Of a stretch of 64,000 nt of DNA, positions 8,816 through 64,000 are shown in pieces. The translations under genes were made by a program, and so were the position numbers. Position 1 is the first letter of the stretch. Each line of letters opens with the position of its first letter. The notes below the pieces were generated by a model, which saw only the letters and a program-made list of their open reading frames with translations, was not told the DNA's origin and ran no database searches. The DNA is from Kofleriaceae bacterium (lineage in GTDB: Bacteria > Myxococcota_A > Polyangia > Haliangiales > Haliangiaceae), in the NCBI GenBank assembly GCA_015075455.1, contig JABTUH010000016.1, forward strand, positions 64,001-128,000, read 5' to 3'.

Positions 8816-8934
8816 CCGCCCATGGTGCGCGAGCCGGCCGCCCCCGTGCAAGCCCGCCGTGCCCCGCCGGGGTCCGCCGCCGCCGTCGTCCCCGCCCCGC
8901 GCGCGCGGCGCGACGGCGGTGGTAGGGTCGCGCG

Positions 8935-10100
8935 GTGGCACGACGTCACGCCCACCGCGCCGGCGACTGGTCGTCGGTGGCGGTGCGCCTCGACGAGATC
9001 ATCAGCGCCCACGGCGGCGCCGATCCGTTCGAGGAGGCGCTCACGCTCCTGGTCGCGCGGCTCGCCCACGAGGCCAGCGGCGGACCGCCGGCCGGGTTCG
9101 TCGGCGGCGCCGCCGGCGCGCCGGCGCGGGTGAACGAGCTGGTCGCGGCGGCGGCGGCGCGGTGGCCGGGCGTCGTCGAGCCCGGCCGCACCACCGGCCT
9201 CGGCGGCGCGGCGCTGGCGCGGTGCGCCGCCGTGCTCGACGGCGTGGCGCTGCTCGGCGACGAGCTGGTCGGCCTCGACGCCGTCTTCGAGCACCTGGTG
9301 GCCCACGTCGCCAAGGGCCAGAAGGGGCAGTTCTTCACGCCCCGCCACGTCATCGCCGAGGTGGTCGCGATGCTGGCGCCGCGGCCGGGCGAGCACGTCG
9401 TCGATCCGGCCTGCGGCTCGGGCGGCTTCCTGTGGCACGCCCTGGCGGCCGCGCCCGGCTGCGTGGCGTGGGGGTTCGACGTCGATCCGCGCGCGGTGCG
9501 GGTGGCGCGAGTCATGCTCGCCGCCCACGGCGCGCCGGTCGGGCGGGTGGCCTGCGTCGACAGCCTGCGCCGGCCGGCGCTCGAGGACCACGCCCGCGGC
9601 CATGGCGCGCCCCGCGGCTTCGACGTCGTCCTGACCAACCCGCCGTTCGCCGGCGACGTCGGCCGCGCCTTCGACGGCGCCTACGAGCTGGCGCGCGGGC
9701 GGGTCGAGCGCGACGTGCTGTTCGTCGAGCGCGTGGTCGAGCTACTGCGCCCGGGCGGGCGCTACGCCATCGTCCTGCCCCACAACAAGGTCGGCGGCGC
9801 GACCTGGAGCCACGTCCGGCGCTGGCTCCTGGCGCGGACCGAGGTGGTGGCGGTGCTCGGGCTCGGCCGCCCCACCTTCCTGCCCCACACCAGCCAGAAG
9901 GCGTGCGTCGTGATCGGCCGGCGGCGCGCCCGCGCCCTGGCGGCGCCGCCCGCTGGCGAGCGGGTGCTGTTCTTCGTCAGCGAGCGCGCCAGCGGGACGC
10001 CCGCGGCATGGCTGGTGCGACGCGAGCGCGCGATCGATCACGACCTGGCGCGGCTGGCCTGGCGGTGCGGGCCTGCTCGCGCGCGGCGGCGCGGGCGGCG
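8935..10100 (+). CDS. N6-adenine DNA methyltransferase, gamma-class (HsdM/TaqI-like); the 3' end is uncertain
   Basis: Motif X/I reads GQFFTPRHVIAEVVAMLAPRPGEHVVDPACGSGGFL and motif IV reads VLTNPPF. Beyond ~10050 the frame degenerates into poly-Arg inside a GC-rich direct-repeat tract (10080-10200). Confidence 0.7.
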
Positions 10101-10439
10101 ACGGCGACGGCGGCGCGGGCGCGGCGACGGCGACGCGGGCGCGGGCGGCGACGGCGGCGCGGTGGCTGGGCGGCGCGCGCCTGCGGCCCGCGCGATGACC
10201 GCGCCCGGGCGCCGCCGACCGCGTGATCACGCGGCGGGTCGGCGAGTCGGCCCCGCGCTGGTGCTGGCCCCGAGCGCTCGACCCGCGGCGCGCGGTGATC
10301 GTGGCCGGCGCCCGCCGCCTCGGCGAGCTGGTGGAGTGGTGAGCGACACCGTCGACGCCCGCGCCTGCCGGCGGACGCGCCGGTGCTGGTGCTCGACACC
10401 GGCACGCCTGGGAGGCTGGTGCAGGCTCCGCCACGCCCG

Positions 10440-11016
10440 GTGACGGGCGCGCGACCTGGGCAGCGCGGCGGCGCCTGGCGCGGGCGACGTCATCATCTCG
10501 CGCCCAGGCTGTACTGCGGCAGGTCGCGCTCGTCGACGACGACCTGTTCGCGCGGGCGCCGGGCGGCAACCTGGTGGTGGCCTCGACCGAGTTCTACGTG
10601 CTGCGGCGGCGAGGGGGCGGCAGCGGCGCGGGCGCCGACCGCACGACCGGCGGGACTGGCGGCAGCCGCGAGGCGAGCGGTGCCGGCGGTGCCGGCGCGG
10701 ATCGCGGTCGGCGCGCGCCGCCGCCCTCGACCCGGCGGGCCTGGTGCCGTACCTGCTGTCGGCGCCGGTGCAGGCCGCGCTCGCCGCCGGCCAGGAGGGC
10801 GGACACCACCCCCGCTTCGAGCGCGCCCAGCTCGAGGACCTGCCGGTGTCCGACGCCCTGGTGCGCCGCGCGGCGGCGATGGCGCGCGCGGTCCGCGACC
10901 AGGCCGCGAGCTTCGGCGCCGCCGTGGCCGGCGGCCGCGCGCTGATCGCCACCGTCGAGCGCGAGCTGGCGCCACCACCGCGGCGACGCCCCACGCCGCG
11001 CCGCTCGACCCGGTAA
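10440..11016 (+). pseudogene. HsdS-like target-recognition-domain remnant, split over at least two frames
   Basis: Frame 1 has GDVIISRPG (cf. the HsdS GDILISRIG motif). Frame 2 continues with VALVDDDLFARAPGGNLVVASTEFYVLRRR (cf. ...ISSNLFVIRP). Frame 1 from 10744 gives LLSAPVQAALAAGQEGGHHPRFERAQLEDLPVSDALVRRAAAMARAVRDQAASFGAAVAGGRALIATVEREL, which resembles the coiled-coil conserved region of S subunits. No single intact ORF spans this. Confidence 0.4.
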
Positions 11017-50501: not shown

Positions 50502-50989
50502 GACCCGGATCCGGCGCCGGCCAGCCGCGGGTGCAGCGCGGCGACCAGCCCGGCGCACGCGGCCTCGCAGATGTCGAGGACGCGCTCGAAGCCGTCGTCG
50601 CCGCCGTAGTACGGGTCGGGCACCTCGGCGCCGTCGGGCGCGTCGGGGTCGTAGCTGCGGAGCAGCCGGACCCGGGCGCGGGCCGCGGCGTCGGGCGCCA
50701 GCCCCAGCACCGCGCGCTGGTTGGCGGCGTCCATGGTCAGGATGAGGTCGAAGCGCTCGAAGTCCACGCGCTGGAACTGGCGAGCGCGGTGCGCGAGCTC
50801 GATCCCGCGCGCCCGCGCCGCCGCCCGGGTCCGCGGGTCCGGCAGCTCGCCGACGTGCCAGCCGCCGGTGCCGGCGCTGTCGACGGTCACCCGCCCGGCG
50901 AGCCCGGCGCGCTCCAGGGTGAGGCGCATCACCCCCTCGGCGGTGGGCGAGCGACAGATGTTGCCCAGGCAGACGAAGCAGATCCTCAC
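50498..50989 (-). CDS. low-molecular-weight protein-tyrosine phosphatase
   Basis: N-terminal P-loop [20 protein letters not shown] (CX5R), plus the DPYY motif (EVPDPYYGG). Confidence 0.85.
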
Positions 50990-51006
50990 GTCGCTGCCGG
51001 TGTACC

Positions 51007-52377
51007 ATGGCGGCGATGCGCCGAGCCGCCCTCTCCCTGCTCGTGCTCTGGCTCGGCGCCTGCGCCTTCGAGCCGCGCGGCGGCGATCCCGACGCCACCG
51101 CCACCGACGCCGCCACCGACGCGCCGGACGACGACGGCGACGCCGCCGTCCCCGACGCCGCCACCGACGCCGCCGTCCCCGACGCCGCCGTCCCCGACGC
51201 CGCCGTCCCCGACGCCGCCGTCCCCGACGCCGCCACCGACGCCGCCGTCCCCGACGCCGCCACCGACGCCGCCGTCGACGCCAGTCCCGACGCGCCGCCG
51301 CTGGTCGACATCGCCTACCTGCCGCCGGCGGCCGAGGTGCCCGGCACCGGCGACGTGACCATCAGCGGGCTGATCACGATCGACACCTCGCCCACCGGCT
51401 CGCGCCCGAACCTCGGCGCCGGCACGTCGTACTCGGTGGCGACCCCGACCGGGGGCGGCGCCGACATCGTCGTCCTCCACGTCGACGACCTGACCATCAC
51501 CGCCGCCGGCACGCTGCGCGTGGTCGGCGCCCGACCGTTCGCGATCGTCGCCGGTGGCGCGGTCGTGATCAGCGGCAGGCTCGACGCCAGCGCCACCGGC
51601 ACCACCGTCGCTGGCCCCGGCGGCGGCGGCCCCAGCGCCGGCACCGGCGAGGGCGGCGACGGCAGCCACGCCGGCACGCGCACCGACAGCGGCGGCGGCG
51701 GCGCTGGCCACGGGACGAGCGGCGCGCGCGGCGGCAACGCCACCTGCAACCTCGGCTGCCTCCCGAACGTCGTGACCGCCGGCGGCGCCGGCGGCGTCGC
51801 GTACAACGCCGGGCTCACCCAGCTCGTCGGCGGCTCGGGCGGCGGCAACGCGGCGGCGGCCAGCGGCACCTGCCCCGGCCAGCCCGGCGGCGCCGGCGGC
51901 GGCGCCGTGCTGATCTACGCCGCGGGCTCGATCACCGTCGCCGGCGTCATCGCCGCGCACGGCGGCGGCGGCGGCCGCGGCGTCGCCTGCTCGGGCACGG
52001 TGTCGACCGCCGGGGCCGGCGGCGGCTCGGGCGGTCAGCTCGACCTGCAGTCGCCGTCGATCACGGTCAGCGGTCAGATCGGCGCCAACGGCGGCGGCGG
52101 CGGCGGTGGCTCCGACGGCAGCGACGGCGACGGCCAGCCCGGCCAGGACGGGCGCGACGACGGCAACCAGGCCAGCGGCGGCGCCGGCAGCGGCAACGTG
52201 GGCGGCGACGGCGGCGCGGGCGGTGCCGGCGCCTCCGGTCCCGGCCAGGGCGAGGACATGGGCAACGATCAGAACGGCGGGGGCGGCGGCGGCGCGGTCG
52301 GACGGGTCACGATCCGCCACCGCGGCGCCCAGCCCACCGTCGCCTCGAGTCCGCCTCCCACCTACATCCCCTACTGA
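51007..52377 (+). CDS. Gly-rich lipoprotein (paralog 1, intact) with DAAVPD/DAATDA hexapeptide repeats and a Gly-rich beta-helix-like C-terminal region
   Basis: ATG at 51007. Lipobox LWLGAC|AFEPRG. An 18-bp in-frame tandem repeat runs 51145-51285. The C-terminus is GRVTIRHRG... Confidence 0.7.
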
Positions 52378-52428
52378 CCCGGCCGCGAACGCTCGCCACG
52401 AGCGCCTCCCGGGGCGATACTCGGCCCG

Positions 52429-53822
52429 ATGTGGCCGTACCGCGTCGCCCCGGCGATCCTGGCCCTGGCGCTCCTGGCGCCCGCCTGCGCCTTCGAGCCC
52501 CGCGGCGAGGAGCTCGCGGCCGACGCCGCCCTGGCCGACGGCGCGGTCGACGCGCGCCCCGACGACGGCGGAGGCGACGACGACGCGGCGGCCATCGACG
52601 CGAGCGTGATCGACGCCGGCCTCACCGACGCCCGCCCCGACGCCGCGATCGTCGACGCCGCGATCACCGACGCCCGCCCCGACGCCGCGATCGTCGACGC
52701 CGGGGTCACCGACGCCCGGCCGCCCGACGCCGGCGTCGACGCCGGCGCGGTCGACGACATCGTCCACGTCCGGGCGATCGACGAGCACCTCGGCACCGGC
52801 GACTGGACCCTGACCGCGAACGCGAGCGTGCGGACGTTCGGCACCGGCGCTGGCTTCGACGTCCCGCTACCGGCCGGGGTGACCTTCGAGAACGCGCCCC
52901 AGGATCCGAGCGAGCCGACGCTCGCGATCCTCCGCGTCCGCCACCTCACGATCGCCAGCGGGGTCACCCTGCGCGTGGTCGGCGCCGCGCCGTTCGTCGT
53001 CATCGCCGAGAGCGTGACGCTCTCCGGCGTCATCGACGCCGGCGCCCGCCTCGGCGTGGCCGGCGGCGGCGCCACGGCCGGGATCGGCGTCGGCGGCGAC
53101 GGCGCGCACCGCGGCCTCTACTCCGACGGCGGCGGCGGCGGCGGCAGCTTCGCCACCAGCGGCGGCCGCGGCGGTAACGCCTTCTGCGACACCGGCTGCA
53201 CCCCGAACACGACCGCGCCCGGCGGCGCCGGCGGCGCGCTCCACGGCGACGCCATGCTGACCACGCTCCAGGGCGGCTCGGCCGGCGGACGAGGAGCGGC
53301 CCCCGCCGGCTGCACGATGGGGCCCGTCGGCGCCGGCGGCGGCGCGGTCCAGCTCTACGCCCGCACGTCGATCGTCATCGGCGCGGGTGGCGGCGTCAAC
53401 GCCGGCGGGGGTGGCGGCGCCCGGGGCGAGCAGTGCCTCGGCAACTGGGGCGCGGCTGCACGGCGGCGGCGCCGGCGGCGCCATCTACCCGCAGTCGCCG
53501 AGCGTGGTCAGCGGCGCGGGCGTCCGCGCCGCCAACGGCGGCGGGGTCAGGCGGCAGCGCCGCGGCAGGATGCTGGCCGGCCGGCGCGCGCGACGGCGCG
53601 AGGCACGCGAGCGCCCGCGCCGGCGGCGCGCCGGGCAACGGCAACCTGAGCGCGCGCAGGCGGCGACGGCGCCTGCGGTCGGGATCGCCGCGCCGAACGG
53701 CGGCGTCGGCAACGCCGGCAACTGAAAGCGGCGGCGGCGGCGGCGCCGACGGCACTGCCGCATCGTCATCCGCCACCGCGGCACGGTCATCGCCGGCACC
53801 ACCAGCCCAGCCCCGCGGTGAC
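52429..53822 (+). pseudogene. Gly-rich lipoprotein paralog 2, with frameshifts in the Gly-rich region
   Basis: ATG at 52429. Lipobox LLAPAC|AFEPRG. It is collinear with paralog 1 up to ~53460 (GAVQLYARTSIVIGAGGG). The continuation (LHGGGAGGAIYPQSPSVVSG... and the terminal CRIVIRHRGTVIAGTTSPAPR*) lies in other frames. Confidence 0.5.
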
Positions 53823-53834
53823 GGCGGCCTGACT

Positions 53835-55070
53835 GATGCGGCGGCGGCGGCGTCCACGATCGCGGCGCCTGGCCGTCGCGCTGGCGCTCACGCTCACCGG
53901 GGTGCGCCGGCGAGCCGCGCGGCGCGCGCCGACGACGACGCCGCCGCGCCCGACGCGCCGGGGACGACGTCGACGCCGCGACCACCGACGCGCTCGAACC
54001 TGAGCGACGGCCGCGCCGCACCAGAGCGCCCGTCGCAGCGCGACGCCACCCACCTGGGCAGCGAGGATCTGGTCTTCGACGCCGCGCACGATCGACACCT
54101 CGGCGCGCCACGGTCACGGATCACGCTGCCGGTCGGGGTCGAGCTGGTCGCGGCGCCCAGAGCGAAGCGGCCCCCGGCTCGCCCACCGAGCGGCGAGTGC
54201 GCGGCCTGACCCTCGCCGAGGCGGCGGCTGCGTCTCGTCCGCGCGATCGGCTCGCGCCGCCCTGGTGATCCGCGAGAGACCGCGTCAGATCCGACGGCGT
54301 CCGAAGACGCCGCGCGCCGCCGCGATCAACCCGGCGCCGGTGGCTCGGACCGCGCGCGGGCATCGGCCGCGGCGGCGACGGCGTGCGCGACGGCAGCTAC
54401 GCCGACAGCGTGACCGGCGGCGGCGGCGGCTTGGTCAGCCAGCGGCGCCAAGGGTGGCGACGCCAGCGGCGCCGCCGGCGGCGAGGGCGGCCTGGCCTTC
54501 GGCGACCCCAACCTCGACCTCCTGCTCGGCGGCGCCGGGGGCGGCGGCGCGTCGTCGAGCGGCTGCGACGCCACCACCGCCGGCGCCGGCGGCGGCGCGC
54601 TCCAGATCTACGCCCGCACGTCGATCGAGATCACCACCACCGGCGCGATCAACGCCGGCGGCGGCGGCGGCGGCGGCGGCCGGAGCTGCTCGTTGCAGTA
54701 CCTGGCCGGGACCGGCGGCGGCTCCGGCGGCGCCATCTACCTGCAGTCGCCGGTCATCGCCAGCGCGGGCATCCTCGCCGCCACCGGCGGCGGCGGCGGC
54801 GGCGGCGCCAGCAACGACCACGGCGGCCCCGGCGGCGACGGCACCGCGACCACCGCCCGCGCCACCGGCGGCACCTCCGGCGGCGCCACCTACGGCGCGG
54901 TCGGCGGCCGGGGCGCCGCCCAGGTCGGCGACGCCACCGCCGGCGACAACGGGCCCAGCCTCGGCAACGGCGGCGGCGGCGGGGGCGGCGGCGGCCGCAT
55001 CGTCGTCAGCTACCGCGACACGCTCGAGGAGGGCACCGTCAGCCCGTCGGCCGTCAAGCGGCAGTTCTGA
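53835..55070 (+). pseudogene. Gly-rich lipoprotein paralog 3, heavily frameshifted; the last ~125 codons are intact in frame
   Basis: Signal-like RRLAVALALTLTG and ..CAGEPRGA.. appear in two frames near 53835-53920. The 54440-55070 frame gives [20 protein letters not shown]...[25 protein letters not shown]...[24 protein letters not shown], which is homologous to the paralog 1 C-terminus. Confidence 0.4.
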
Positions 55071-55118: not shown

Positions 55119-55553
55119 GGAACCCGAGCCCGGAGCCGAACCCGAGCCCGAGCCCGAATCCGAATCCGAACCCGAGCCCGAATCCAGGCCCGAATCCGAA
55201 TCCGAACCCGAGCCCGAATCCGAGCCCGAATCCGAACCCGAATCCGAGCCCGAACCCGGATCCGAACCCGAGCCCGAATCCGAACCCGAGCCCGAGCCCG
55301 AATCCGAATCCGAACCCGGATCCGAACCCGAACCCGAACCCGAACCCGGATCCGAATCCGAACCCGAATCCGAATCCGAACCCGAGCCCGGAGCCGAACC
55401 CGAACCCGAATCCGAATCCGAACCCGAATCTGAGCCCGAGCCCGGAGCCGAACCCGAACCCGAATCCGAATCCGAACCCGAATCCGAACCCGAACCCGAG
55501 CCCGAACCCGAATCCGAACCCGAGTCCGAGTCCGAGCCCGAGCCCGAACCCGA
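55119..55553. repeat. hexanucleotide microsatellite (GAACCC/GAGCCC/GAATCC)n, ~72 units
   Basis: There is a perfect 6-bp periodicity with three unit variants. The repeat lies between convergent gene ends (55070 and 55580). The minus strand reads (GGGTTC/GGGCTC/GGATTC)n. Confidence 0.9.
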
Positions 55554-60747: not shown

Positions 60748-61641
60748 GACACGCACATGATCCGCTTCGCATCCAAGCTCGGCCTGCTCGCCGCCACGCT
60801 GTTCGCCCTCGCGCCTGCCTCGGCCCGCGCCGAGGAGCCGGACGCGCTGCCCGGCTCCGAGGAGGGCGAGGAGCCGGCCGGGGCCGCCCCCGCGCCCGCG
60901 GCCGACGCCGCGTCCACGACCGCGGCCGTCGACGCCAGTGCCCCGACGCGCTGGCCGCGCGACGTCATCATGCGGCCCCTGACCCTGCCGTCGGGCGTGG
61001 TCATGGTCGGGATGGATCCCGCCGCCAACAACGACTTCTCGGCGGTGTCGACGACGCTGGTCGCCGGCTACGGCATCTCCGACAAGCTCGAGGCCGTGCT
61101 GTTCTACGGCTACGGGCTCAAGGACTTCGAGGTCAAGGGTGACCTCAAGGCCGGCGTCGGCTACGCCGCCCTCCGCGGCGCCGCCGGCGGCAAGCTGGAG
61201 GTCGTGCCCCGCGCCGTGGTCGGCTACAGCCTCCTGGGCGAGGCCCTCACCCCGCTCGGCCTCGGCGCTCAGGTCCAGTACAACATCAGCGACAAGCTCG
61301 CCGTGATCACGCCCGGCGGTCAGCTCGCGGTGAGCCTGGCCGAGGACGCCACCATGGCCACGCCGATCACCTTCGGCCTCCCGGTCGCGGTCGGCTTCCA
61401 GCCGACCCCCGAGCTCTACCTGCAGCTCGACACCAACCTGGCGACCTTCAGCATCGCCGACTCCGCCAACGCCTTCATCTTCGCCGATCGCACGCCCGCG
61501 TCGCTGCTGGCGGTCTACAACGCGATCCCCGCCCTCGACGTCGCCGCCGGCATCGGCCTCGACCTGACGCCGGCCGCCGGCGGGGTCGCCGACACCCTGG
61601 CCTTCCTGCTCGGCGTCCGCTACTACGCCGGCTCGCTCTGA
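60748..61641 (+). CDS. outer-membrane beta-barrel protein
   Basis: ATG at 60748 is preceded by GGAGGA 9 nt upstream. Signal MIRFASKLGLLAATLFALAPASARA. Alternating beta-strand patterns are present. An AT-richer promoter-like region lies at 60570-60745. Confidence 0.6.
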   Translation, partial: DTHMIRFASKLGLLAATLFALAPASARAEEPDALPGSEEGEEPAGAAPAPAADAASTTAAVDASAPTRWPRDVIMRPLTLPSGVVMVGMDPAANNDFSAVSTTLVAGYGISDKLEAVLFYGYGLKDFEVKGDLKAGVGYAALRGAAGGKLEVVPRAVVGYSLLGEALTPLGLGAQVQYNISDKLAVITPGGQLAVSLAEDATMATPITFGLPVAVGFQPTPELYLQLDTNLATFSIADSANAFIFADRTPASLLAVYNAIPALDVAAGIGLDLTPAAGGVADTLAFLLGVRYYAGSL

Positions 61642-61680
61642 CGCGTGGTTCGCCCGACCGCGGTCGGAGCTCGCGGGAAC

Positions 61681-62800
61681 CGAACGGCGAGCCATGGATC
61701 GAGCAGGGTCGCCCTGAGCCCAGCCTGGTGCCGCGGTCGCCCTGAGCCCATCGCTCCGGTCGCCCTGAGCGCCATCGCCGGTCGCCCTGAGCCCATCATC
61801 CGGTCGCCCTGAGGAGTTGAGCGCTGCCGGTCGCCCTGAGCCCATCGCTGCCCGAAAAGTAGCCCTGCGCCCATGCTCCGGTCGCCCTGAGCCCATCGCA
61901 GGGACCGCGCCCTGAGCCGCCCGCGAGCGCCCGCCCGGGCGTCCGAATCCGGCGACGAGTCCGCGGCCGTCGCGCGAACGATGTCGCGCGCGCGCCCGAG
62001 GCCGGAGTCGGGCCCCTTCACCGACCGCGGTCGGAGACTGGACGCACGAACGGCCGCGGCCGTGCCGTCCGCCGGTCGCCCGTCGCCCCGCCCAGCGCCG
62101 GGGCCTGATCTCAGGGTCAGCGCGTCATGGCGCCCCGCGAATCGCCCTGAGCCCGAATCCGTCGCCCTGTCCCTGAGTCCGCATCGATCCGCTGGTCGGA
62201 GCCGAATCCGAATCCAGCGGTGGCCCTGAGCCGAATCCCAGCGAGGGCGGGCCCGAGCACCGCGAGGGCTTTCAAGCAGCGGCGTCGCGCGAACGATGTC
62301 GGGCGCGTGCCGCCCGAATCCGTTCGTCGGGAGCCCTTCCCGCCGGGCGAGCGGCCGAGACTGCGCGCGAACGGCGAGCCCTGCTCGACCGGACGCCCTG
62401 AGCCCATCGCCCGGCGTCGCCCTGAGCCTTCGTCGCCAAGGCTCGCCCTGAGCCCATCGCCAGGCAGCCCGAGCCGCCCGCGAGCGCCAGCGAGGCGAGT
62501 CGCTGGCATCCGCGGCTCGCGGCACGTCGCGCGAACGATGTGGGCGATCGCGGCGCTCGCATTGCGGAAACCTTGAGCGCCCCATCATGCCGCCCTCGCA
62601 GCCCGAACCCGAGCGAAGTCGAACGGCGAGCCTGCGCTGCTCGGCGACCGCTGCGCGCCCATCGCGCTGCGGGGCCCTGAGCATCCGCGGGAGACGCCGG
62701 CGAGCCCTATCGCGTGGCCGCATCGCCGGTCGGCCTGAGCCGCCCGAGCGCCAGCGAGGGCGTGTCGAAGGGCGACAAGCCGCATGCACGCGCGAGCGAT
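61681..62800. repeat. complex nested tandem repeat: an array of ~22-28 bp GGTCGCCCTGAGCCCATCG units embedded in ~250-310 bp higher-order units
   Basis: The core array runs 61707-61925 with at least 8 units at spacings 28/23/22/22/27/51 bp (not multiples of 3). Further copies appear at ~62143-62240, 62393-62450 and 62665-62745. Co-recurring motifs are cgaacggcgagcc (61681, 62371, 62621), gccgcccg(cg)agcgcc (61918, 62476, 62737) and cgcgaacgatgt (61975, 62289, 62530). Confidence 0.85.
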
Positions 62801-63386
62801 GACGGCCGACGAGGCCGGTCACCGCCTGCAGGCGAGCGGCCAGCGAGTCCGAGCGGGGCGGCGAGCTCGCCCCAGGCCACGCGGGCGTCGGCGGAGGGCG
62901 ACGCGCCGAGATCGCAGCGCCCGGCGCGCGACGTCGGCCCGCCGCCGAGCCCGCGCGCGTCCGCCAGGGCGTCGCGGCGCGCGCATCGAGGAGCGCGTGA
63001 GGAGCGACGCGCCTCCGATCCGGACCGGATCGCCGCGGTCGCGGCACGACCACTCGGCATGCGCCTCACGTTGACCTCGGCCCAGGCGCGGAGCCGCGAT
63101 CGATCGCGGCAGCCCGGCATCGAGCGCGCGATCGGCGCGCAGGCGCCGCTCGGCCGCCGCCACCACCGCCCACTGCCTCGGCGTGGTCCGGCAGAGGCGT
63201 CGGCGAGCGGCGCCGGCTGCCAGATCCCTGCGCGTCGCGCCACCGCCGCGCCGCCAGCGCGCGAGCTCGCCGGCCAGGCGGGATCGGAATCGGCGGCGTC
63301 GCGGCGCGTCGACCGCGCCGCCGTCCGCGTGGCCGGTGGATCCGCCTCGCCGAGGACGATCGCGGCGCCCAGCGCCAGAACGGCGA

Positions 63387-64000
63387 TCACCGCTGGGCGG
63401 CCGTGATCCTTTCGTCGGCGAGCCTGGCGCATCGCGTGCGATGATCGCGGCCAGCGCCGAACGTGACCTCGATGGGCGGCCCCACGCCAGCGTCGGCGGA
63501 TCGTCGCGGCATGCTGCGGCTTGGTCTCGAGGCGCCGCGCACGCCGAGGTCCGACTCGGCCCGCCGCGCGGCCGGCGCTTCGCCGCGTTCCCGGCGAGCT
63601 CCGCGTCTACGGCGACGACGCCGCCAGAGCCGCATGCGAGCTCGGCGCCGACGCTCGGCTGCGCGACGCCGCCGCTCGGCCGGCGCCCTGGCGAGCAGCC
63701 GCGCGACCAGCGCCTCGACCTCGACCGGCGCGTCGGGCGCCACCGCGCGCAGCGCCGGCGGCGGCGTCATGATGTGGGCGGCGATCATCGCGCCGGCGCC
63801 GCCGTCGTGGAACGGCGGCCGCCCGCTCACCATCTCGAACACCATGCAGCCCAGGGCGTGAGAGGTCGGTGCGGTGGTCGACCGGCACGCGCGAGCGGCC
63901 TCACACTGCTCGGGTGACATGTACGTGGGCGTGCCCATGACCGTCCCGGTCCGGGTCCGCGCGCCGGTCGCCGCCGAGGCCGCCCGTCAGCTTGGCGATC
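63387..64000 (-). CDS. Ser/Thr protein kinase, C-terminal part (the gene continues beyond the window end); the 3' boundary is uncertain
   Basis: Subdomain VIII GTPTYMSPEQ, then ...GCMVFEMVSGRPPF... and LLARAPAER (subdomain XI). A downstream TM-like segment RPAVIAVLALGAAIVLG is in another frame (63340-63400). Confidence 0.55.

Follow-up and report, generated by a model that had tools for sequence, protein, structure and literature searches.

A nested tandem repeat between convergent genes of a Kofleriaceae bacterium and its probable origin in a dispersed extragenic hairpin element

The 64,000 nucleotides of Kofleriaceae bacterium assembly GCA_015075455.1 that we analyzed (contig JABTUH010000016.1, positions 64,001 to 128,000; hereafter the window) include, near their end, a repeat cluster of about 1.15 kb situated between two convergent genes. 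With a probability of roughly 0.6, we consider this cluster to be four tandem copies of a dispersed, non-coding composite element, comparable to the repetitive extragenic palindromic (REP) sequences and the mycobacterial interspersed repetitive units (MIRUs) of other bacteria, that lies in the 3'-3' spacer of its flanking genes. A first-pass annotation, made from the letters of the window, had offered three possible sources for the repeats: an array of regulator binding sites, a cluster of REP-type elements or miniature inverted-repeat transposable elements (MITEs), and the remnant of a repetitive coding region. Only the second finds support, in that the unit is dispersed, contains a hairpin, and occupies extragenic positions at other loci and in relatives. 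The cluster would then represent an interspersed hairpin-repeat family in Kofleriaceae that has been amplified at several registers and that is linked to a widespread, apparently unnamed 3'-end hairpin of soil bacteria. The Kofleriaceae are placed in the order Haliangiales of the class Polyangia, phylum Myxococcota.

A nested tandem repeat without codon structure

Throughout the repeat region the GC content is 0.73-0.80, and its repeats stand out from shuffled sequence. The core motif TCGCCCTGAGCCC, allowing up to two mismatches, occurs 21 times in the window, as compared to 7.7 times on average, and 15 at most, in dinucleotide-preserving shuffles. Fourteen of these matches, every one on the + strand, are within 61709-62742; the remaining seven have two mismatches each and are dispersed in coding DNA. 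Tandem Repeats Finder (TRF) recognizes a period of 22 with 7.1 copies at 61730-61899, including a cleaner core (61734-61813; 90% matches), and a second array at 62394-62465. The three motifs that had been singled out as co-recurring anchors do recur: CGAACGGCGAGCC is present at 61681, 62368 and 62620; CGTCGCGCGAACGATGT at 61968, 62283 and 62525, with a degenerate copy at 62789; and GAGCCGCCCGCGAGCGCC at 61915 and 62472, with a variant at 62739 that is without one C. A perfect 14-bp palindrome, CCGACCGCGGTCGG, found at 61654 and 62021, constitutes a fourth recurring motif. Where three or four higher-order units had been proposed, four can be aligned (units A to D, starting at about 61654, 62021, 62346 and 62601), each 210-370 nt in length, and pairwise comparisons of their non-array tails yield z = 4-14 over shuffles. 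TRF, the motif counts and the alignment of units above shuffles together confirm the nested higher-order tandem repeat described in the first-pass annotation. Its view that the repeat is not CRISPR-like (CRISPR, clustered regularly interspaced short palindromic repeats) also holds: We rejected a CRISPR array, since the units follow one another head to tail without intervening spacers and no cas genes were found near this locus.

The sequence of the cluster can be compared with that in short-read assemblies. Six short-read contigs, drawn from NCBI, ENA and Logan, encode the exact 294-aa protein found immediately upstream of the repeats, and each of them ends 41-221 nt past the gene, i.e., inside the array. 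In unique DNA these contigs are the same as the window (for contig L010, at 5775/5775 bases), and the differences are confined to repeats or to one noisy patch. This patch, at 53450-54450, differs by about 131 small indels and substitutions from L008 (JAHDXB010000048.1, a contig from a short-read metagenome-assembled genome, or MAG, of the window's organism), and two genes, of 472 and 397 aa, that L008 carries intact are broken in the window, with amino acid identities of 83.5% and 68.9%. Because zero differences over kilobases together with indel patches resembling raw reads are impossible by natural divergence, we conclude that the window is most likely a long-read consensus that retains unpolished patches. 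A MAG pipeline for activated sludge that leaves such unpolished stretches has been described (PMC8012365).

In contigs L008, L009 and L013, a perfect head-to-tail array of the 23-bp unit CCATCGCTCCGGTCGCCCTGAGC, in at least seven copies, begins directly after CGAACGGCGAGCC. The scrambled 22-28-bp units of the window are probably a blurred image of such a perfect 23-bp minisatellite, about nine units long. Hence, the tandem array of imperfect units that was originally reported is real, and its irregular spacing and imperfection are probably consensus noise. We expect the overall architecture of the cluster, four units spanning about 1.15 kb, to be reliable, but not the base-by-base sequence of units B to D. 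A more extreme possibility is that the cluster as a whole was produced by long-read mis-assembly, as might be suspected from the error-rich patches in the window and from the lack of a short-read contig spanning the region. However, three independent short-read assemblies hold the start of the perfect array at the same position, L010 agrees with that array at its last base, and related arrays are present in accurate contigs of the same and of other organisms, such that we find a pure artefact scarcely credible. The array explains why short-read assemblies of this organism break here, and the comparison flags the long-read MAG as one carrying unpolished, error-rich patches. The window also contains, at 8926-10440 (+), a gene for an N6 DNA methylase (N6_Mtase/Eco57I-type). 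That DNA modification contributed to local nanopore consensus errors is possible, and we offer it only as a thought.

Codon-position GC is strongly periodic to 61641 and then flat to about 63650, and 61561-63750 (2.19 kb) forms the longest aperiodic stretch of the window. Within 61650-62810, phase contrast is at the level of shuffled sequence and below that of the known noisy coding patch, and the long open reading frames (ORFs) across the repeat region match no Pfam families. On the + strand the true 23-nt unit includes a TGA, and each frame is closed once per 69 nt. On the - strand the perfect array is open in all frames, so gene callers invent proteins there. Searches against 5.8 and 1.84 billion proteins, using a 476-aa pseudo-ORF, a chimeric repeat query and the predicted protein P0016, returned solely pseudo-ORFs derived from repeats (among the 1.84 billion representatives, 35 matches). 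Three of these, P0001, P0016 and P0017, are on NCBI contigs of 220 kb and 665 kb; and since P0016, from the 665-kb contig, is built of six 23-aa repeats, another array of 23-nt units of the same family is implied. Repeats of this kind have entered public annotation as 'hypothetical proteins' (P0001, P0016, P0017 and P0019). Along with P0025 and P0038, these are pseudo-ORFs of the family deposited as predicted MAG proteins, i.e., annotation artefacts.

The missing codon periodicity and the searches that return only pseudo-ORFs bear out the initial assessment that the region is non-coding. They run counter to its suggestion of a decayed repetitive coding region, as do the TGA in every frame cycle of the + strand and the lack of any real protein homologue in these searches. 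One might still argue that coding sequence has been disguised by sequencing errors, with the C-terminal repeat domain of the neighboring kinase, or a separate repeat protein, hidden in frames broken by indels. The window does hold another coding patch, one that indels have ruined, the - strand of the perfect array is open and is called as ORFs in public annotations, and the periodicity of 62811-63650 is ambiguous. Nevertheless, we regard this explanation as highly improbable: The accurate copies on contigs L043, L044 and L035 (see below) are non-coding and sit beyond the stops of convergent genes, the periods (23, 68 and 69 nt) are not all multiples of 3, the homologues are confined to repeat pseudo-ORFs, phase contrast in 61650-62810 equals that of shuffled sequence, and homologues of the kinase end about 35 aa past its domain.

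A dispersed composite element and its hairpin

Aligning contigs L043, L044 and L035 with units C and D of the window defines a composite element of about 70-160 nt. It starts with the palindrome CCGACCGCGGTCGG, which is followed by a spacer of about 13 nt, the anchor CGAAC(G/A)GCGAGCC and CCATCxCTCC. Next come, in order, GGTCGSCCTGAGCC, GCCCGAGCGCSAGCGAGGGCG, TGTCGAAGGSCGAC and AAGCCGCGG, and the element concludes with a conserved tail, CGCGCGAxxGATGTCGGGCGC..CCGTTCGTCRGGAG. The portion GGTCGSCCTGAGCC..GTCGAAGGSCGAC constitutes a hairpin module.

Each of the three contigs carries this element in a different arrangement. L043 (JAHDXB010000098.1, from the same MAG as L008) has, at its end, a 162-nt unit in 2.0 copies at 98% and a 68-nt unit, and this array begins a few nucleotides past the stop of a convergent 264-aa gene. 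Within the window, matches to its unit are limited to 61632-62825 and to the + strand. The head of unit A is present in both L043 and L044, aligning with L043 at 87.5% identity; the tail of unit A shares 74% identity with the L043 unit over 134 nt, and unit D shares 90.8% over 87 nt (E = 5e-28). L044 (JACTMV010000500.1, of a different MAG, GCA_014584455.1) has a 69-nt unit in 2.3 copies at 92%, plus a full module and the tail, placed between the 3' end of cas2 and a CRISPR array. L035, a contig from a GenBank whole-genome shotgun metagenome, contains more than 600 nt of GGATTC/GGGCTC hexamers, a half-module and a 42-nt unit in 4.2 copies at 96%, and ends with the same tail beside the 3' end of a convergent gene; against L035, the tail of unit B yields z = 13 and unit D yields z = 22.

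Two of these settings warrant additional description. Along positions 3824-6340 of L044, the element assumes the leader position of the CRISPR array, whose repeat is GCTTCAACGTGGCCGCCGACCGTCGTCGGCGGAGAC with a period of 74, and a 445-aa 'protein' (P0025) has been called across array and element. In the window itself there is an array of 72 hexamers (GAACCC/GAGCCC/GAATCC; TRF score 469) at 55120-55553, between a gene for a Gly-rich protein and the 3' end of an HNH endonuclease gene. It starts right after ggcccttcgaccgcg, which is half of an inverse hairpin module. L008 is identical through this array (and L009 begins inside it), and the hexamers are therefore not noise; and because the hexamers of L035, which are of the same family, are directly joined to the element, hexamer arrays seem to be part of the same repeat system. 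On the complementary strand the hexamers read (GGGTTC)n, which takes the form of a G-quadruplex motif.

Searches with short probes were less informative. Among 185,579 species genomes, the 19-mer unit had seven single matches, all in coding or unrelated sequence of unrelated taxa, as expected by chance, and neither the source MAG nor GCA_023382815.1 was among the genomes matched; and a 37-mer of two perfect units had no match in the JGI metagenomes.

The dispersal of the element could be viewed as the work of a transposase, such as a REP-associated tyrosine transposase (RAYT) or other IS200-like Y1 enzyme, that moves the unit via its hairpins, in which case the cluster would have arisen by repeated insertions and not by slippage. 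The occurrence of the family at several loci in at least three assemblies, its conserved ends, and the copy in the cas2-CRISPR spacer region are in line with mobility, and the 11-nt loop that is conserved while its stems covary (see below) fits a hairpin that is recognized by a protein. Yet none of approximately 30 window ORFs scanned encodes a transposase domain, and no GTAG-type head, terminal inverted repeats or target duplications are recognizable at the loci seen, which are tandem arrays or contig ends. Moreover, perfect head-to-tail periods of 23, 42, 69 and 162 nt resemble the products of slippage or unequal exchange. On balance, we think it unlikely that the cluster was assembled by transposition.

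A further alternative, the binding-site array of the first-pass annotation, supposes that the 23-bp units and/or the 14-bp palindrome titrate a DNA-binding protein, be it a regulator, a nucleoid protein or a partition protein. A period of about 23 bp approximates two helical turns, all sites share one orientation, and the palindrome CCGACCGCGGTCGG, the sole candidate site, does not vary between the window, L043 and L044. But the array is downstream of both flanking genes and not in a promoter region, lies close to neither an AT-rich region nor a gene for replication or partition, and follows unrelated genes at its other loci, and the variation of the period (23/42/69/162) is contrary to a fixed constraint on protein spacing; this role is quite unlikely. 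Plasmid-type iterons or a replication origin were also rejected, given a GC content of 0.73-0.80 and the failure to find rep or par domains among the ORFs of the window.

We favor tandem copies of a dispersed extragenic element, for which the internal organization of the element suggests a route of amplification. GAGCC occurs in the anchor and again in the half-module, exactly 23 nt apart, and the 23-nt array begins and ends at these GAGCC positions. Slippage or unequal recombination between such short direct repeats could amplify the element at several registers, and those observed are 23 nt in the window, 42 nt in L035, 68-69 and 162 nt in L043 and L044, and 210-370 nt for the higher-order units. 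In combination, several registers would produce the nested, satellite-like appearance of the locus. Any function, by analogy with REP sequences and bacterial interspersed mosaic elements (BIMEs), might reside in hairpins within 3' untranslated transcripts, which could serve as a terminator, an RNA stabilizer or an insulator between convergent genes; otherwise, the element would be neutral or selfish DNA.

Several observations weigh against this interpretation. Only two loci of this organism, the window cluster and L043, were seen as DNA. All modules face the same direction, unlike those of classical BIMEs. The sequence of units B to D comes from the window consensus, and every short-read contig stops inside the array. 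Furthermore, we presume a nanopore-plus-Illumina origin for the window from its error pattern and from the HS### style of its locus tags, and not from any record. At the RNA level, the folding of whole units is unexceptional (z = -0.84 and -0.40), the 23-mer array shows no particular structure on its + strand (z = 0.13), and a scan of the region for U-tract terminators and sigma-70 promoters found none, which makes an RNA-level role pure inference.

The same features bear on whether each higher-order unit might instead be the gene for a small structured RNA, with the cluster being a tandem set of such genes. Although the tail is conserved across three organisms and stable hairpins are predicted, the folding scores of the units are not significant, promoter- and terminator-like signals are lacking, the length of the unit is highly variable, and Rfam provides no match. 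In a permissive scan of 61-64 kb against Rfam 15, the best score was 24 bits (mir-422, with a threshold of 90), as expected by chance alone, and 20 loci with the canonical hairpin gave no match at gathering thresholds. Tandem non-coding RNA genes are therefore very unlikely.

Individual hairpins, as opposed to whole units, do have the potential to form stable structures. The core of the 23-bp unit, GGTCGCCCTGAGCC, corresponds to the left arm and the 5' portion of the loop of a hairpin, GTCGCCCT-GAGCC(N)TGTCGA-AGGGCGAC. The canonical 27-nt form, with a stem of 8 bp and a folding z of -3.2, is present in exact form in 29 metagenome contigs, mostly 11-90 nt past the 3' ends of genes. When the loop alone (GAGC-N1-4-GTCGA) is considered in the loci that were fetched, 55 of 120 matches have flanking arms with at least 7/8 pairs, and these comprise 22 distinct stems; 30 of the 55 are the searched stem itself, resulting in about 25 independent instances. 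The stems of this class covary around a conserved loop, as illustrated, within the family, by a compensatory difference between G..C in L043 and L044 and C..G in L035. In the one complete module of the window, 7/8 arm pairs are retained and a nested hairpin of 21 nt is inserted in the loop. L014, which is from another organism, has an array of 21-nt half-hairpins that ends in one full hairpin.

Across contigs L014-L042 (metagenome contigs from JGI and GenBank), the hairpin with the conserved 11-nt loop GAGCCTGTCGA is often paired with an inverse copy, cgacccttcgacNNNNgctcagg; reiterated ccgact/cgactg motifs border it in L018, L030 and L042. Its translations (e.g., ..LSLSKG.., ..FDKLRANG..) are familiar as spurious peptides of GC-rich genomes. 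Our literature searches yielded nothing relevant on the motif or on its typical peptide translations, and a query for REP sequences in myxobacteria returned only general papers on REPs.

We allow an outside chance that the hairpin and the composite element together represent an undescribed class of protein-recognized hairpin repeat. Such a class might be REP-like, with an enzyme that mobilizes or processes it, or might be a functional RNA element of 3' ends. In either form, the Kofleriaceae arrays would mark a lineage in which the hairpin ran away into minisatellites and hexamer arrays; and if the class has a dedicated enzyme or a function at the RNA level, these arrays would be a convenient entry point to it.

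Flanking genes and map of the locus

The coordinates of all features are collected in Table 1. The stop codon of the 294-aa gene is 13 nt ahead of the repeat cluster, and its product, which had been labeled an outer membrane protein (OMP) in the earlier annotation, has a signal peptide and belongs to no Pfam family. On the other side of the cluster, 62811-63389 may be either a true spacer or noisy coding sequence: It has no Pfam match and no similarity to the repeat family, and its phase contrast (0.22/0.14) is between those of shuffled sequence and the known noisy coding patch.

The kinase that had been recognized at the window end is substantiated both by its match to Pfam Pkinase (E = 2.7e-6; 27.4 bits, which is below the cutoff of 31.7) and by its kinase homologues. 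The latter are kinase-domain-only proteins of 266-320 aa, with 37-45% identity, that align only to 63693-63953 and, by tblastn, stop about 35 aa past the domain. We considered a frameshifted kinase and dropped the idea, in that the homologues align in one frame. Public annotation of this fragment consists only of an identical 152-aa 'hypothetical protein HS111_33445 [Kofleriaceae bacterium]'.

Genes in the neighborhood include FeoAB, a multihaem cytochrome, a secreted protein and the kinase. Farther away, at 50923-55070, there are three tandem paralogous genes for Gly/Asp-rich repeat proteins that have no Pfam match. Their copy numbers differ from those in L008 cleanly and in phase, by 15 nt near 51.16 kb and by 30 nt near 52.70 kb; these are genuine variable number tandem repeats (VNTRs) within coding sequence.

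Table 1. Positions of the repeat units and adjoining features in the window.
Feature	Position	Strand	Basis or remark
Gene for 294-aa signal-peptide protein	60757..61641	+	Strong GC periodicity at third codon positions (GC3) to 61641; exact protein on 6 public contigs
Unit A head: palindrome CCGACCGCGGTCGG (61654-61667) and anchor CGAACGGCGAGCC (61681-61693)	61654..61693	+	Motif matches
Unit A, 23-bp minisatellite of about 9 units, scrambled in the window	61694..61906	+	TRF; motif matches; tails of L008, L009 and L013
Unit A tail: half-module GCGCCCTGAGCCGCCCGCGAGCGCC, CCGAATCC remnant, anchor CGTCGCGCGAACGATGTCGC (61968-61987)	61907..62020	+	Alignment
Unit B: palindrome (62021-62034), degenerate anchor, 20-22-nt units (62142-62181 and 62217-62238)	62021..62345	+	
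Unit B, further parts: four CCGAATCC hexamer remnants, anchor (62283-62306), tail end CCGTTCGTCGGGAG (62320-62333)		+	
Unit C: anchor (62368-62380), three 24-26-nt units (62389-62465)	62346..62600	+	
Unit C, further parts: module remnant (62466-62495), anchor (62525-62547)		+	
Unit D: anchor (62620-62632), degenerate units, degenerate tail anchor (62786-62805)	62601..62810	+	
Unit D, complete hairpin module GTCGGCCT-GAGCC[GCCCGAGCGCCAGCGAGGGCG]TGTCGA-AGGGCGAC	62729-62776	+	Only complete module in the window
GC-rich stretch (about 0.80) with no clear codon periodicity	62811..63389	.	True spacer or noisy coding sequence
Ser/Thr protein kinase gene fragment, convergent, running off the window	63390..64000	-	Kinase-domain homology at 63693-63953

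Comparison with known repeat families

Judged by its sequence, the cluster appears to be of an ordinary kind among bacterial repeats, i.e., an interspersed extragenic hairpin and minisatellite, and we found no named family to which it is related in sequence. One parallel, meant only as an analogy, is to the higher-order repeats of eukaryotic satellites, in which short monomers are similarly nested in longer units and are homogenized by unequal exchange. Here, by contrast, there are four units in 1.15 kb of bacterial intergenic DNA, and a centromere-type role is not suggested.

MIRUs are units of 46-101 bp that contain short ORFs coupled to the flanking genes. The present repeats resemble MIRU-VNTR loci in that units some tens of bp long are repeated directly, head to tail, between the genes of a GC-rich genome, and in that the same family occupies several loci (including the window cluster and L043) with differing copy numbers and periods; both also confuse assemblies. 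They differ in having no sequence relation to MIRUs and in their nested registers, from 23 to about 370 nt, organized around hairpin modules.

For the REP sequences and BIMEs of Enterobacteria and Pseudomonas, roles have been proposed in the stabilization of mRNA 3' ends or in termination, as well as in protein binding (see also PMC2817692). The Kofleriaceae element resembles them: In both, short GC-rich units form stable hairpins from short imperfect palindromes, are extragenic and follow the 3' ends of genes, are dispersed, and assemble into mosaic clusters with conserved linkers. There are, however, several differences. The 14 cores and the matches to the L043 unit are all on the + strand, i.e., in direct orientation, whereas the units of BIMEs alternate; perfect minisatellites with short periods (23, 42 and 69 nt) are present; and a long loop of 11 nt is conserved among hairpins whose stems vary. 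Nor did we find a GTAG-type head in the unit sequences of L043 and L044, or a Y1_Tnp domain, as expected of a RAYT, in the Pfam scans of the window ORFs.

Another counterpart of the element is the hairpin with the GAGC..GTCGA loop from soil metagenomes. The two have in common the left arm and the 5' portion of the loop, the position after the 3' ends of genes, and an association with adjoining short-period arrays, as in L014 (21-nt units) and L035 (hexamers). Metagenomic instances are mostly single hairpins of 27-28 nt or inverted pairs, whereas the window consists mostly of half-hairpins in direct tandem, accompanied by the palindrome, the anchors and the conserved tail.

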